This document shows, piece after piece, positions 14,701-17,700 of a stretch of 39,922 bases of DNA (the stretch's first letter is position 1; each line of letters begins with the position of its first letter). A program made the position numbers. This DNA is from a virus: the UHGV virus genome UHGV-1470964; one strand, written 5' to 3'.

Positions 14701-17700
14701 TCCACGCCGGATTTGCGGAAGACGACGAGCAATTCGATGACATTCGCGTAATTCGTGGCGTGAAAGTACCAGGCGGAAGGCTTGGAATAAAAATCACCGA
14801 ACTGGAGAACGTATGAACGCCACAATTCAAACGATACCAGAGCTTCTTATCCAGACACGAGGCAATCAGACCGAAGTGGCGAGGATGCTTTCCTGCGCAA
14901 GAGGAACGGTGCTCAAGTACAACCGAGACAGCAAAGGCGAACGTCACGTAATAGTTAACGGCGTCCTGATGGTCAAACAGGGCAAGAGTGGGAGACGATG
15001 AGACTCGAAAGCGTAGCTAAATTTCATTCGCCAAAAAGCCCGATGATGAGCGACTCACCACGGGCCACGGCTTCTGACTCTCTTTCCGGTACTGATGTGA
15101 TGGCTGCCATGGGGATGGCGCAATCACAAGCCGGATTCGGAATGGCTGCATTCTGCGGTAAGCATGAACTCAGCCAGAACGACAAACAAAAGGCTATCAA
15201 CTATCTGATGCAATTTGCACACAAGGTATCGGGGAAATACCGTGGTGTGGCAAAGCTCGAAGGAAATACTAAGGCGAAGGTACTGCAAGTGCTCGCAACA
15301 TTCGCTTATGCGGATTATTGCCGTAGTGCCGCGACACCGGGCGCAAGATGCAGAGATTGCCACGGTACTGGCCGGGCCGTTGATATTGCCAAAACAGAGC
15401 AGTGGGGGAGAGTTGTCGAGAAAGAGTGCGGAAGATGCAAAGGCGTCGGCTATTCTAGGATGCCAGCAAGCGCCGCATATCGCGCTGTAACGATGCTAAT
15501 CCCCAACCTTACCCAACCCACCTGGTCACGCACTGTTAAGCCGCTGTATGACGCTCTGGTGGTGCAATGCCACAAGGAAGAGTCAATCGCAGACAACATT
15601 TTGAATGCGGTCACACGTTAGCAGCATGATTGCCACGGATGGCAACATATTAACGGCATGATATTGACTTATTGAATAAAATTGGGTAAATTTGACTCAA
15701 CGATGGATAAATGCACTCGTTAAATAAAGCCCTGAGTTAATAGCTCGGGGCTTTTTTGTATCTGCACAACAGATAATTGCATTGGGGTGACCGGTTAATC
15801 CCGTTACGCTAACCGAAACAGGCGCAGTGCAATTATCGTTGTGGTGAATGCGCAGGCTGATGCGCTAACTTATCAGCTAGATGGTGAGGTAAAGGCTCAC
15901 CATGGCGACGACGGGTAGTTCATTTACATGCCGGAAAACACAGCACCGGTCACCACACACCAAATACCTACCAGGACCATAAGAGCAAAAGCTCAACGCA
16001 CTACCCTCTATTGCCCACCGCGCCGTGGGCTTTTTTATTGCAGGCCGCAGATATCATTTTCAGATGCCATGTAGCAATCAGAGTCTGACGGCCTTTCCCC
16101 TACAAACACACACAGCACCATCCGGAAAATCGGAGGTGAGGCCTATGAAGATGGTAATCACTCAGCAAGTCCTGAAAAGCCTTATGCACTATGATCCTGT
16201 TTCAGGGGTTTTTACTTGGGTTAAATCCAGCAATCGCAGAATTAAAGTTGGCTCAAGAGCTGGAACGATTAATGGATCTGGTTACAGGCAAATACGTATA
16301 GATGGGAAAATCTATAAAGAGCATCGGCTGGCTTGGTTGTATGTATATGGATGCATGCCAGAAATGGACGTGGATCATTTAGATAGAAACCCATTAAACA
16401 ATGGCATTAAAAACCTCAGATTATCGACCAAATCAGAAAATCAATATAACAGACGCAAACCATCCGGAGGAAAGAATCCCATAAAGGGCGTCAGGCTTGA
16501 TGTTAAGAATGGGAAATGGAGAGTTTGCGGAAGTAGAAATAAGAAGCAGATCTGGTTGGGTTACTTCGATGATCTCGAACTTGCTGAGTTGGTAATCTCA
16601 GAGTTTAGGGGGAAATATCATGGTCAATTCGCGTGCCAGGCGTAGGGAGAAAAAATTGCCATACAAACAAGATTTCATCGCTGCGCTACTTGCCGCCAAG
16701 GAGCAGGGTATTGGTGCAATGCTGGCTTTTATCATGGCGTATCTGCGTGGTCGCTATAACGGCGGCGCGGTAACAAAAACGCTAATTGATGCGCTGATGT
16801 GCGCGATGATTGCCTGGTTCGTTCGTGACCTTCTGGACTTTATCGGCCTGAGCAGCAACCTCGCCTACATAGCCAGCGTCTTTATTGGATACATCGGCAC
16901 CGATTCGATCGGCAATCTTATTAAAAAACTTGCAGCAAAAAAGGCGGGAGTTGACGATGCAAACCAGTCCTGACGGAATTGCTCTGATAAAAAAATTTGA
17001 AGGTTGTCGGCTGACTGCTTACCCCGACCCCGGAACGGGAGATGCGCCGTGGACCATCGGCTATGGCTGGACCCATCCGGTTGACGGAAAGCCAGTAAAG
17101 CGCGGTATGACTATCGACCAGCAAACCGCTGACAGGCTTCTGAAAACAGGGCTTGTTGGTTATGAGAATGACGTGCTGAAAGTTGTCAGGGTGAAGCTGA
17201 CACAAGGCCAGTTCGACGCACTGGTGTCGTTCGCTTACAACGTTGGGTCGCGTGCTCTTTCCACATCTACACTGCTGAAAAAGCTGAATGCTGGCGATAT
17301 AAAAGGCGCGGCAGATGAATTTCTGCGCTGGAATAAATCAGGCGGAAAGGTGATGCCGGGGCTCACCCGTCGCCGGGAGGCAGAGCGCGCTCTGTTTCTG
17401 TCGTGATTAGCGCACTGGTTAAGCGTTACTGGTTGCAGCTGCTGGTGCTGGCGTTAATCGGCGTGCTGGCGTTCTTCGTGAACCACTACCGCGACAACGC
17501 CATCACCTACAAAGACCAGCGCGATAAAGCGAAGGTCCGGGCCGAAACATCAGAGGCGATCACCAACAACGTGATCACCACGATGAACCTCATTCGTGAC
17601 ATCTCACAGGCTACCCAGAATGCTAAGAACGAACTGGCCCAGAAAGGCGAAACGCGCATTGTCTACATCAGGCAGGCGCTTGAAGGAGATCCGTGCGCTA

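Follow-up and report, generated by a model that had tools for sequence, protein, structure and literature searches.

The window analysed is the whole of the viral genome UHGV-1470964, a stretch of 39,922 nucleotides, and the region described here runs from the Q antiterminator gene to the lysis genes (Table 1), with terminase and portal genes located about 3 kb downstream. The promoter-like stretch behind Q is annotated as promoter/qut in mEp213, HK97-like and HK620 phages, and a terminator scan returned 6 terminator-like sites compared with 1.7 ± 1.4 in shuffled sequences. A sequence-only reading of this DNA had treated about 860 bp between tR' and the holin as a single intervening insertion. 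The interval is two separate things, an endonuclease insertion and an exchangeable leader, as the 385-base leader also occurs without the endonuclease gene and is a P22-like tRNA slot, while the endonuclease gene is sited within the start-codon motif of the holin rather than between tR' and the holin. Of the feature placed at 15760-16645, position 15760 is the start of the leader and the gene itself starts at ATG 16145.

Table 1. Features between the Q gene and the endolysin gene, with positions in the window.
Feature	Positions	Strand	Basis
Q antiterminator gene (upstream context)	14998..15621	+	Pfam PF03589 Antiterm, E 1.3e-57
pR'-like late promoter, TTGACT-17-TAAATT	15664..15692	+	consensus scan
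Predicted tR' intrinsic terminator, 13-bp stem (15726-15754) + T6	15726..15760	+	terminator scan
tRNA-shaped scaffold RNA (modelled)	15838..15962	+	comparative model and fold of isolated domain
16S rRNA helix 11 look-alike, the variable arm of the scaffold	15869..15915	+	Rfam SSU model, E 1.2e-7
3' leader including holin translation-initiation region	15960..16144	+	common to tRNA-bearing relatives
Predicted second intrinsic terminator, GCCCAC-CGCGCC-GTGGGC (16013-16030) + T6	16013..16036	+	terminator scan
Original holin translation-initiation region, now that of the endonuclease	16116..16153	+	same in empty allele except AAA to AAG
HNH_3 + AP2 putative homing endonuclease gene, 166 aa	16145..16645	+	Pfam, PHROG, fold
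505-base insertion relative to empty-site alleles	16154..16658	+	alignment with ES3, KCJ3K291, EC2001
Possible second holin start: SD AGGGGG, 7 nt, ATG 16620 in frame	16607..16622	+	3' junction comparison
Holin restart signal: stop TAG fused to SD GGGAG, six A, TTG	16643..16658	+	junction comparison
lambda-S-type holin, 105 aa from TTG, 117 aa from ATG 16620	16656..16973	+	PF05106, E 5.6e-30
Endolysin gene (downstream context)	16957..17406	+	PF00959, E 6e-48

The AT-rich gene with HNH and AP2-like motifs that had been noted at this locus was borne out, its G+C content being 40-41% compared with 50-56% in the flanks. The product matched the Pfam family HNH_3 (PF13392, E 8.6e-15, 54.5 bits against a cut-off of 24.8, residues 59-100) and AP2 (PF00847, E 2.2e-5), the latter at 25.1 bits and below the 33.3-bit cut-off; PF00847 is listed for close relatives in their source database. 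PHROG 99 'HNH endonuclease' was matched at E 6e-64, and residues D77, H78, N90 and N102 were invariant across 63 relatives. The HNH motif is encoded at approximately 16319-16444 and the AP2-fold domain at approximately 16481-16630. A fold search was used because a PDB sequence search with the HNH protein gave no match at E <= 0.01. For the AlphaFold2 model (pLDDT 94.5), the best PDB fold match was I-HmuI (1U3E, E 5.2e-4, probability 1.00) with a global TM-score of only 0.43, as the domains are differently arranged. Model strands 116-141 and helix 144-162 form a three-stranded sheet packed on a helix, and this C-terminal domain is superposable on plant AP2/ERF domains (1GCC, rmsd 1.8 Å over 55 columns; 7ET5, 1.4 Å; probability 1.00). 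By its sequence and modelled fold the protein is an HNH_3, I-HmuI-like endonuclease of the free-standing type with a predicted AP2-type DNA-binding domain. It resembles I-HmuI-type HNH proteins (HNH_3, PHROG 99) in the invariant D-H...N...N residues, the 1U3E fold match, the C-terminal AP2 fold, the small size, the low G+C and presence/absence polymorphism at one site, and differs from them in having no intron around it and no sequence match to a solved structure, and in belonging to a clade specialised on class-I holin starts with a restart signal for the interrupted gene.

Alignment with related prophages, which had been proposed as a check, delimited the insertion. Empty sites ATGAAAATGCCATAC were found in E. 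coli prophages with flanks approximately 99% identical (ES3, KCJ3K291, EC2001 and others), the empty alleles reading ATGAAAATGCCATACAAACAAG at the junction site, and the inserted bases fall inside the Met1-Lys2-Met3 dual start of the holin, with a junction ambiguous by 2-3 bases since ATG and TTG share TG. The endonuclease gene begins on the holin's own SD and both ATGs, so that the protein starts MKM. This initiation region consists of a hairpin, CACC-AUCCGGAAAAUCGGA-GGUG, over the SD GGAGGUGA, followed by ATG-AAG-ATG, and the empty allele has ATG-AAA-ATG behind the hairpin-masked SD; the predicted fold sequesters the SD in occupied and empty alleles alike. The exact empty 107-aa holin was present on at least 1000 contigs compared with 134 contigs with the occupied form, and no copy of the occupied allele turned up among 5,426 complete E. 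coli genomes or 50,697 phage records, indicating that its spread is modest. Approximately positions 16206-16600 are 100% identical to a copy on a Citrobacter freundii contig, with an unrelated leader and lysis genes of 82-100% identity. That one exact site is filled in some genomes and empty in others that are otherwise nearly the same marks the gene, on comparative grounds, as mobile, and the alignments place a putatively selfish HNH-AP2 gene exactly in the double start codon of a lambda-type holin. The earlier reading as a homing endonuclease is supported by the existence of these empty-site variants and by the invariance of the nuclease residues. The enzyme would nick or cut the uninterrupted holin start (the ATGAAAATGCCATAC region) of co-infecting or resident phages and repair would copy the endonuclease gene in (intron-less homing), the insertion destroying the target.

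The seven other lineages and recombinants that were examined, at 56-99% identity, all had the gene at the same insertion place in three class-I holin types, and the Q families upstream differed among them. The 3' junction in all seven consisted of TAG, TGA or TAA, a GGAGG-like sequence, 5-7 nt, TTG or GTG, and CCN. The N-termini of the lineages retain captured holin starts (MKM, MRMP, MKRMP), and the empty allele of Erwinia phage Eho49 reads xKRM-PDKDPG. The same design in three holin types suggests that the Met-(Lys/Arg)-Met-Pro start region is a long-lived homing target. Between lineages pS was 0.66-0.99 and saturated in most pairs while pN was 0.14-0.43, a contrast indicative of long purifying selection; an old clade under purifying selection is also compatible with a domesticated function. 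Close relatives of the endonuclease came solely from a large protein collection. Relatives at 51% and 50% identity had no adjoining holin, no lambda-S-type holin was detectable by tblastn at approximately 160 more distant loci, and one-genome-per-species contigs and IMG/VR held only relatives at 49% identity or less, none with a lambda-S-type holin adjoining by tblastn. The nearest relatives of the gene were HNH genes of the ordinary free-standing kind, found here and there in lytic phages and nin regions. The clade would appear specialised on class-I holin start codons and to carry a restart signal for the gene it interrupts, and a literature search found no earlier description of an endonuclease gene in a holin start.

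Endonuclease insertions that split a resident gene which still works are known, as with mobE in nrdA of Aeromonas phage Aeh1. Gene 31 of epsilon34 is an in-frame fusion of the eaE N-terminus with an HNH protein (PMC2629481). The present gene shares with both an endonuclease ORF that continues in frame from the N-terminus of a resident phage gene, host function being retained. It differs in that only two or three codons of the start region were captured, that the rest of the gene is restarted by an endonuclease-borne SD and TTG/GTG, and that eight lineages and three holin types show this arrangement.

Three other accounts of the inserted gene were weighed against homing. A domesticated HNH-AP2 protein, kept for its benefit as a component of the lysis cassette or late programme (a holin regulator acting by translational coupling, or a nuclease directed at host or competitor DNA), would fit the strong purifying selection with saturated synonymous sites, the occurrence of all lineages at the same locus, the conserved stop-SD-start coupling design and the position of the gene behind the holin's own regulated initiation region. 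We consider domestication clearly unlikely, given that near-identical phages thrive without the gene (the exact empty holin on at least 1000 contigs), that the gene occurs with 100% identity in genomes of unrelated background and has a foreign-looking G+C, and that ordinary free-standing HNH genes in lytic phages and nin regions are its nearest relatives; periodic homing, too, would be expected to leave the nuclease residues intact and the gene at a single site. Many phage HNH genes are intron-borne, and the sequence-only reading had left an intron open. Exact removal of the 505 bases does regenerate the original holin frame, as would be expected if a group I or group II intron with an endonuclease ORF were spliced to restore an MKMPYKQDF holin mRNA, but the covariance-model search and the logic of the junctions decided against this. 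No intron family in Rfam was matched at E <= 1 over 16050-16760 or at E <= 10 over 15620-16200, the ORF takes 501 of the 505 inserted bases and leaves no room for a ribozyme core, and wherever the ambiguous junction is placed, a U ending the 5' exon and a G ending the intron do not occur together. Splicing would moreover be unnecessary for an ORF that begins on the holin ATGs and ends in a dedicated holin SD and start. From these sequence features we conclude that no intron is present, the chance of one being very slight. Lambdoid and HK97-like phages commonly encode an HNH protein next to the terminase genes, and the terminase and portal genes a few kilobases away could suggest an HNH protein of that kind acting in cos cleavage and packaging, its site reflecting the gene order of the late operon. 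This is extremely unlikely for a gene that differs in family and in architecture (HNH_3 + AP2, the fold being I-HmuI-like), lies upstream of the holin instead of adjoining the terminase, is missing from otherwise near-identical phages and invariably goes with holin starts, irrespective of the packaging module.

Downstream, the stop of the putative homing endonuclease gene is fused to a new SD and a TTG that occupies the former Met3 position of the holin, which from Pro4 onward is 99% identical to WP_000783764 of the empty alleles. The lambda S gene has an S107 antiholin / S105 holin dual start with the sdi stem-loop upstream, and lysis timing in lambda is set by the ratio of the two products. 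The empty alleles share this arrangement in their ATG-AAA-ATG behind a masked SD, and the holin (PF05106) is close to lambda S. In the window the Met-Lys-Met start is no longer on the holin ORF; motif and regulatory hairpin together now serve the start of the endonuclease, the classical one-lysine antiholin has been lost, and the holin has TTG 16656 and possibly ATG 16620, 12 codons upstream. A start at ATG 16620 would add 12 residues with a net charge of +5. PGAP annotates the 117-aa form from this codon; TTG is a weak start codon and annotators choose ATG 16620. Of six distinct 3' junctions compared, four had a start of this type (the window type, which includes L004 and L172, and L006, L008 and L479) and L009 and L169 had none, and the charge of the extension varied between lineages, so that a recreated dual start is not a conserved feature.

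The endonuclease would be made late from the Q-dependent transcript at a rate set by the old holin initiation region, and ribosomes finishing the endonuclease, or binding the new SD, would start the holin at TTG 16656 to give an S105-like product. ATG 16620 may yield an N-terminally extended, positively charged antiholin-like form that recreates the dual start. The dual-start motif would thereby have been handed to a selfish gene, with the holin restarted from a weak codon behind the stop of that gene. Isogenic occupied and empty prophages in public strains offer a ready-made test of the dual start and hairpin in lysis timing, and the same pairs could be used to probe how a homing endonuclease spares an essential, dose-critical gene.

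The leader upstream is, from comparison with related phages, a standard P22-like/lambdoid cassette of tR', tRNA slot and second terminator. The annotated order in phage L is Q, terminator, tRNA-Asn, tRNA-Leu, terminator and holin, and positions 16011-16110 are approximately 80% identical to the phage L stretch with the annotated second terminator between the tRNA genes and the holin. The tR' hairpin is the 5' edge of the exchangeable module, since exactly there the sequence begins to match that of the KCJ3K291 prophage, whose Q gene differs. Positions 15960-16144 were 100% identical to Citrobacter phage Omnitron and approximately 99% identical to E. coli EC2001, in whose prophage a tRNA-Asn precedes the shared 3' leader and identity resumes right after the CCA end. 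The description of a structured, twice-terminated leader was upheld: both hairpins with their U runs are predicted intrinsic terminators, the second ending one base short of the 16013-16037 first given, and the predicted fold of 15760-16012 has -81.3 kcal/mol (z = -3.46), a stability that none of 200 shuffles reached. No tRNA gene was found by ARAGORN in the window and no Rfam family at gathering score anywhere in it, while Rfam in E-value mode over 15620-16200 (E <= 10) and 16050-16760 (E <= 1) returned only an SSU helix 11 match and terminator-like noise, so that known ncRNA families were rejected along with an intron. The leader is thus like that of P22-like phages (phage L, ST64T and, with its tRNA-Asn, EC2001) in the order Q, terminator, RNA slot, terminator and holin, and differs in that the slot is filled by a cloverleaf-like RNA of 125 nt, one arm of which resembles 16S helix 11, in place of an ARAGORN-detectable tRNA. 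Two independent mobile modules between Q and the lysis genes, the endonuclease in the holin start and the tRNA-slot leader, are the reading we prefer, with a probability of approximately 75%.

The RNA in the slot is a cloverleaf-shaped scaffold as modelled from comparison and folding. Its closing helix pairs 15838-15846 with 15951-15959, hairpin 1 (GCGCA-GGCUGA-UGCGC, 15850-15865) is followed by a variable arm (15866-15929), and hairpin 3 (GCCGG-loop-CCGGU, 15930-15950) abuts the 3' strand of the closing helix before the terminal ACCA (15959-15962). All of the family elements are present in 15838-15959, namely the GUGGUG/CACCAC helix, AAU, hairpin 1, the insert and the 5-bp hairpin, and loop 3 is 11 nt here instead of 9 and keeps CAGC opposite the GCUG of loop 1. 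Both hairpins flagged beforehand were located, the one near 15850 being hairpin 1 and the GGTGAG-GTAAAG-CTCACC hairpin, given as near 15888, lying at 15883-15901; both belong to the scaffold, so the accompanying statement that no tRNA cloverleaf exists was right for a true tRNA and missed the tRNA shape. The minimum free energy (MFE) fold of the isolated domain reproduces the four-way junction and is only modestly more stable than shuffles (z = -1.85), and the MFE of the full leader favours other pairings in which the closing helix is not formed; support for the model comes from covariation and from folding the domain by itself. At least 139 viral contigs of IMG/VR carry the scaffold, in phages of different types and at varying places in the genome, and the inserts are unrelated to each other. 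In an alignment built by pattern searches and a closing-helix pairing filter, which inflates pairing, 92% of cells were paired compared with 26-53% in slid controls, and 11 pairs had changed on both sides compared with 3.3 ± 1.3 in shuffles (0 of 500 as high), while the loop-loop pairing hardly varied. A CCA was nearby in only 36% of scaffolds and a tRNA gene in only 10 of 139, and in Jedunavirus the unit that contains the scaffold has a promoter-like site and a terminator hairpin to itself.

The scaffold had no family match in Rfam, YrlA included, and no prior description of a Jedunavirus ncRNA or of the scaffold sequences, searched as text, was found. CPS-53 of E. coli K-12 is without the scaffold, so no K-12 transcript data apply. 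The scaffold may represent a new RNA family, and points to a class of phage RNA missed by current RNA-family libraries and sited where phage tRNA genes sit. Known tRNA-like stable RNAs include the T4 species 1 and 2 RNAs of the tRNA cluster and the Y-RNA-like tRNA mimic YrlA. Likeness to these lies in the closing helix stacked on a 5-bp hairpin as acceptor and T arm, the D-arm-like hairpin two or three bases past the 5' strand, the ACCA end in late-leader copies and the tRNA-slot location; the scaffold differs in being without T-loop/D-loop consensus, in the complementarity of its two loops (GCUGA/UCAGC) and in interchangeable inserts of 30-130 nt at the anticodon-arm position. An HK022-type put antiterminator was also considered since scaffold copies occur downstream of early promoters. 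HK022 put consists of two long stem-loops of approximately 73 nt forming a V directly downstream of the early promoter (PMC9378689), and this reading was rejected on the differing architecture of the scaffold, which has a closing helix, two short hairpins and an insert.

The variable arm matched positions 172-218 of the Rfam SSU model (47 nt, 33.2 bits, below the gathering score of 50), and 33 of 40 bases were identical to 243-282 of the E. coli 16S gene rrsH with the internal and apical loops kept. The local score against rrsH was 45, compared with 21 ± 2.4 and a maximum of 31 in shuffles. The same hairpin was present in 93 viral contigs, with no 16S-like flanks among the unique flank sequences printed. 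An SSU rRNA gene was rejected on the short model match below gathering score and on flanks unrelated to rrs. The basal stem has been rebuilt with different pairs, and two distinct scaffolds carry the arm, with an A-U pair exchanged for U-A. It is like 16S helix 11 itself and the rRNA mimics known from leaders of ribosomal-protein operons in its SSU-model match and kept loops, and unlike them in having no adjoining ribosomal-protein gene, unrelated flanks and the rebuilt stem.

It is somewhat unlikely that the leader is evolutionary debris, tRNA-gene remnants and a captured scrap of 16S rDNA brought together by illegitimate recombination with the second terminator as the only function. The slot is a known hot spot of mosaicism, the scaffold inserts are unrelated to one another, and a true T-arm is seen in one scaffold and a nearly complete tRNA-like insert in another. 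Debris would not be expected to recur in at least 139 viral contigs of different phage types and genome positions, to include a Jedunavirus unit with its own promoter-like site and terminator hairpin, to show compensatory changes in all three helices with G-U pairs that favour the given strand, or to keep the loops of the helix 11 arm in two scaffolds while the basal stem was rebuilt. The scaffold would be transcribed from pR' when Q permits read-through and trimmed like a tRNA into a stable RNA of approximately 120 nt. Ribosomal protein uS17 binds helix 11 (PMC4604426, PMC3359968), and our best guess is that the arm could serve as a decoy or sponge for a helix-11-binding factor; if it binds uS17, this would add a new mode of phage interaction with the ribosome. 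We tentatively put forward as a possibility that the late-leader element belongs to a widespread, undescribed phage RNA family of tRNA-shaped scaffolds, processed as tRNAs are, with interchangeable cargo arms, that the helix 11 mimic is made in bulk late to capture uS17 or another host factor (an assembly factor or a ribosome-directed defence toxin), and that the adjoining endonuclease clade replaced the S107/S105 dual start with an endonuclease-coupled start, rewiring the lysis clock.

A by-eye likeness of 15822-15865 to 16S positions 345-390 gained no support from local alignment. Among the scaffold inserts the likeness to rRNA was clear for the helix 11 insert alone (z 9-13), with a weak helix-8-like insert at z 5.3 and a weaker 23S-like one at z 4.1.

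The window represents a lambdoid temperate phage or prophage with genes for a cI-like S24 repressor and a Rad52-like recombinase, nin genes, Q, a lysis cassette, KilA-N, DUF2280, a large ORF and portal. A sequence-only reading of this DNA had described the roughly 860 bp between tR' and the holin as one intervening stretch. That length was observed, but it is made up of two separate modules, the leader and an endonuclease insertion. Both of the hairpins named in that reading are in the sequence, and the second terminator it placed at 16013-16037 was recovered as a hairpin with a T run. 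Its structured leader was borne out by the 15760-16012 fold, which was more stable than 200 of 200 shuffles (z = -3.46), and its failure to see a convincing tRNA cloverleaf agreed with ARAGORN, which returned no tRNA gene. The count of terminator-like sites was 6, compared with 1.7 +/- 1.4 for shuffled sequence. In the whole window no Rfam family scored at or above its gathering threshold.

Features of the late leader and endonuclease region of the window
Feature	Coordinates	Remark
Q	14998-15621	
Sigma-70-like promoter	15664-15692	3' of Q
tR'	15726-15754	followed by T6
Noncoding stretch		between tR' and the second terminator-like hairpin
Second terminator-like hairpin	16013-16030	followed by T6
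Endonuclease ORF	16145-16645	true start ATG 16145, stop at 16645

The endonuclease gene was absent from all 5,426 complete E. coli genomes searched by megablast, several of which contain both flanks at approximately 99% identity. Empty-site variants, on which the sequence-only reading had made its homing endonuclease claim depend, therefore exist in E. coli. Strain ES3 has a prophage in which Q, promoter, tR' and the entire leader are the same and are followed directly by a 107-aa gene annotated as 'phage holin, lambda family'. The KCJ3K291 prophage has a different Q and the same leader from the tR' hairpin on, and in EC2001 the 3' half of the leader is the same and a tRNA-Asn takes the position of its 5' half. 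The empty allele (E. coli ES3, NZ_CM184350 3569447-3570043) contains GGAGGTGAGGCCTATGAAAATGCCATACAAACAAGATTTC, and its start-region sequence ATGAAAATGCC is a candidate cleavage neighbourhood. In the empty alleles GGAGGTGAGGCCT is followed by ATG AAA ATG CCA TAC AAA CAA GAT; in the window it is followed by ATG AAG ATG, then by GTA ATC ACT ... TAG GGAG AAAAAA TTG, and then by CCA TAC AAA CAA GAT. Alignment and comparison of the junctions delimited the insertion to 505 bases, 16154-16658 (ambiguous by 2-3 bases), inside the Met1-Lys2-Met3 motif of the holin dual start. In lambda S this motif gives rise to the antiholin S107 and the holin S105. The exact empty holin was found in at least 1000 contigs versus 134 for the occupied form. 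The exact window endonuclease occurred in 92 contigs and a sister sequence in 97, from E. coli, Citrobacter and 'Enterobacteriaceae'. A copy in a Citrobacter freundii contig was 100% identical to the window gene over approximately 16206-16600, and this contig has an unrelated leader and lysis genes 82-100% identical to those of the window.

The HNH and AP2-like motifs and the AT-richness noted from the sequence were confirmed. The product matched HNH_3 (E 8.6e-15), more weakly AP2 (E 2.2e-5, under the Pfam cut-off) and PHROG 99. An AlphaFold2 model (pLDDT 94.5) matched I-HmuI, with the C-terminal 55 residues fitting plant AP2 domains at 1.4-1.8 A. The G+C content of the gene was 40-41% against 50-56% in its surroundings. 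On motif, modelled fold and empty sites, the protein is placed among the HNH_3/I-HmuI-like, AP2-bearing free-standing homing endonucleases. Residues D77, H78, N90 and N102 were unchanged across relatives, and between lineages pS was 0.66-0.99 (most pairs saturated) with pN just 0.14-0.43; judged from these substitution patterns, the endonuclease proteins of the clade are therefore old and functional. Public genomes already label both genes, as 'HNH endonuclease' and 'phage holin, lambda family'. The phage has a second HNH protein unrelated to the HNH_3+AP2 one, encoded by the first ORF of the replication region (9222-10034, plus strand; 270 aa) with a classical N-terminal HNH domain (PF01844, E 2.4e-13). 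Between the lysis cassette and the following DUF2280, large-ORF and portal genes are a KilA-N/ORF11CD3 gene and a putative phage metallopeptidase gene (18051-18602 and 18911-19531).

The endonuclease ORF starts on the two ATGs of the holin itself, 3' of the holin's own SD, which is hidden in the hairpin CACC-AUCCGGAAAAUCGGA-GGUG in both alleles. Its stop codon TAG (16643-16645) overlaps an SD, GGGAG, which is followed by six A's and by TTG 16656 located exactly at the old Met3. After the TTG comes Pro-Tyr-Lys-Gln-Asp-Phe, and from there the holin is 99% identical to that of the empty allele. Twelve codons 5' of the holin TTG, at 16620, is an in-frame ATG preceded by an SD of its own (AGGGGG); starting there would add a 12-residue extension of net charge +5 and give the 117-aa form that PGAP annotates. 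From this directly observed junction architecture we infer three steps of expression. The old holin initiation region would determine the rate at which the endonuclease is translated. Holin synthesis would begin at TTG, either through re-initiation or through ribosomes binding the new SD directly, and the ATG 16620 product, if made, would be antiholin-like, since the first helix of S enters the membrane later when the N-terminus of the protein carries additional positive charge. ATG 16620 might in this manner recreate an antiholin/holin pair. Of the six distinct 3' junctions listed, four have a start of this type (the window type and the endonuclease-bearing relatives L006, L008 and L479) and two lack it, and the charge of the extension differs among lineages.

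An intron, which the sequence-only reading could neither confirm nor exclude, would require the holin to be restored by splicing, and the evidence was against it. Rfam searches of 16050-16760 at E <= 1 and of 15620-16200 at E <= 10 found no intron, and no other family apart from the helix 11 match described below. The ORF takes up 501 of the 505 inserted bases, and no placement of the junctions yields a U before the 5' splice site together with a G at the intron end. Splicing is also unnecessary, because the holin has its own dedicated SD and start in the occupied allele. A terminase-associated HNH protein was rejected as well, the gene being of the wrong family, in the wrong position and dispensable. 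The gene is read as a free-standing homing endonuclease within the holin start.

Relatives in a large protein collection were found at 99, 77, 71, 61, 59, 58, 57 and 56% identity, followed by a continuum below 51%, and genomic places were looked up for seven of them. All examined relatives of at least 56% identity were located directly 5' of a class-I holin gene, with an endolysin gene next. The holins were of the lambda-S type (PYKQDF), a second PF05106 type (PEKDPGFW) and PF16083 (PYKSDPG). The upstream Q genes belonged to different families (PF03589, PF06323 and PF06530), indicating that the association is with the holin and not with the leader. Relatives at 51% and 50% identity were located in the nin region or elsewhere, and tblastn found no lambda-S-type holin at approximately 160 loci with more distant relatives.

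One plan was seen in all of the 3' junctions (TAGGGAGAAAAAATTGCCA, TAGGGAGGAACATTTGCCC, TGAGGGGGATATTTTGCCC, TAAGGGGGCGATCGTGCCA, TAAGGAGGCATCCGTGCCC and TAAGGAGGATATTTTGCCT). The 5' ends carried captured holin starts (ATGAAGATG, ATGAAAATG, ATGCGTATGCCA and ATGAAACGTATGCCA), and one lineage had a frameshifted remnant, ATGAAACGCT-ATG. Erwinia phage Eho49 has an empty allele of the second holin type, TTG-AAA-AGA-ATG-CCA-GAT, with the same upstream sequence, and MKRMP at those endonuclease starts is therefore holin-derived. In locus L172 (499-999, a Logan ERR3062173 contig) the endonuclease is a chimera, with an N-terminal half from another HNH lineage and a C-terminal half, including the restart signal, from the window; residues ~125-166 are identical to the window's. 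The chimera suggests that endonuclease genes have recombined with one another where they sit at the holin. Taken together at the sequence level, these results fit a homing endonuclease clade whose target would be the conserved class-I holin start and which brings the means to keep the holin expressed. Specialisation of a whole clade on holin start codons appears new, as does the combination of a captured dual-start initiation region with a carried stop-SD-TTG/GTG restart of the interrupted gene. The nearest precedents are endonuclease gene insertions that split or fuse with a resident gene, one being mobE in nrdA of Aeh1. The other is the epsilon34 eaE-HNH fusion (PMC2629481).

In its terminator-RNA gene-terminator frame the leader corresponds to the slot in which P22-like phages carry tRNA genes. 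Window 16011-16110 was approximately 80% identical to P22-like Salmonella phages, and the annotated order in phage L is gp23(Q), terminator, tRNA-Asn, tRNA-Leu, terminator and holin. The tRNA-Asn of EC2001 occupies the place of window 15760-15955, with identity to the window returning right after the CCA end of the tRNA. These two arrangements indicate that the twice-terminated leader is the ordinary frame of an RNA-gene slot.

In E-value mode Rfam returned one strong local match, 15869-15915 to positions 172-218 of the SSU rRNA model (33.2 bits, E 1.2e-7), which correspond to 16S helix 11. Direct alignment gave 33 of 40 bases identical to E. coli rrsH 243-282; the alignment scored 45, and shuffles 21 +/- 2.4 (maximum 31). 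The helix 11 arm retains its internal (AGCUAG/GGCGACGA) and apical loops, has two stem pairs in which UA is replaced by AU on both strands, and has a rebuilt basal stem. Helix 11 is bound by uS17 (PMC4604426, PMC3359968). Among phage records, blast matched 15838-15957 at 91% to the 3' end of a ~500-base noncoding unit of virulent Jedunavirus, which by eye has its own promoter-like site and a 3' hairpin with a T run and which is kept in 72 Klebsiella phage records with its middle swapped. Another piece of this unit was 94% identical to the HK620 late leader, and a 56-base piece of the window leader matched at least 500 E. coli prophages.

The arm is held in a scaffold (window 15838-15962) of the form (GUU)GUGGUG-AAU-[GCGCA GGCUGA UGCGC]-insert of 30-130 nt-[GCCGG AGAUCAGCA CCGGC]-CACCAC(AAC), which exact-pattern scans of IMG/VR found in at least 139 contigs, the inserts being of dozens of unrelated kinds. 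A closing helix, 2-3 bases, a D-arm-like hairpin, a variable arm and a 5-bp hairpin stacked on the 3' strand give the layout of a tRNA, but with the anticodon arm replaced. A second version with different hairpins occurs in SfV, SfII, SfIV, ST64B and mEp460. A genuine tRNA T-arm is part of one scaffold copy, and another contains a tRNA-like insert that is nearly complete. In an alignment of 44 distinct scaffolds with inserts cut out, collected with sequence-pattern searches and filtered for pairing in the closing helix, 92% of cells were paired versus 26-53% with partners slid, and there were 11 both-side pair changes versus 3.3 +/- 1.3 in shuffles (0 of 500). Hairpin 1, which was not a selection criterion in one of the scans, had double changes at four of five pairs. 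The hairpin loops are complementary (GCUGA/UCAGC) and scarcely variable. Folded on its own, the window domain gives precisely this four-way junction; the whole-leader MFE favours other pairings. The window copy ends in ACCA (15959-15962), a CCA within 7 nt was found for 36% of scaffolds, and 10 of 139 were within 500 nt of a tRNA gene versus ~3.7 expected.

The helix 11 look-alike was the scaffold insert in 17 contigs and the window. For the other 76 of 93 contigs with this hairpin, the flanks listed show another scaffold, three-way in form, whose stem base has A-U swapped to U-A, and no 16S rRNA likeness was detected in the unique flank sequences listed for the 93 contigs. Among other inserts none had a clear rRNA likeness. 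A put-like antiterminator was ruled out on architecture. Our best guess is a tRNA-like, processed stable RNA whose arm would serve as a sponge or decoy for uS17 or another factor that binds helix 11. No Rfam family matched the window copy or the full-length scaffold units of L174 (an E. coli ExPEC XM prophage) and L175 (Escherichia phage ZCEC13), no description of the scaffold was found in the literature, and it may be a new RNA family.

The scaffold with interchangeable inserts (window 15838-15962; loci L174-L176 and L177-L477) was present in many named phages, including Jedunavirus, as well as in the IMG/VR contigs. The ~500-base noncoding unit of L175 (2140-2700; NC_071140 23154-23714, minus strand) is located on the opposite strand between baseplate-spike and tail-fiber genes, with a promoter-like start and a hairpin and T run at its end by eye, and one of its modules is 94% identical to HK620 late leader 15995-16096. 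In BUCT_49532 the region matching this unit is ~420 bases longer, with an HNH endonuclease annotated under it. The prophage locus L176 (2460-2600), like 76 IMG/VR contigs as judged from the flanks listed, has the helix-11-like hairpin in the unrelated three-way scaffold (GCUUUGGGCUGGC...GCCAGCACCAAAGC), with the stem-base swap relative to the window's copy, in a long noncoding stretch 5' of DUF2528, gam and recT. Inserts of 30 nt in L351, L371 and L303 (UGCAACAACUACUCAUUGAAACGGUAGUUA) weakly resembled 16S helix 8 (z 5.3), which belongs to the S20 binding region; the resemblance may be chance. The CPS-53-like prophage of L174 holds a scaffold copy 3' of its early promoter, and its positions 65-253 (minus strand) encode a C4 antisense RNA (80.7 bits) adjoining isrK (61.2 bits).
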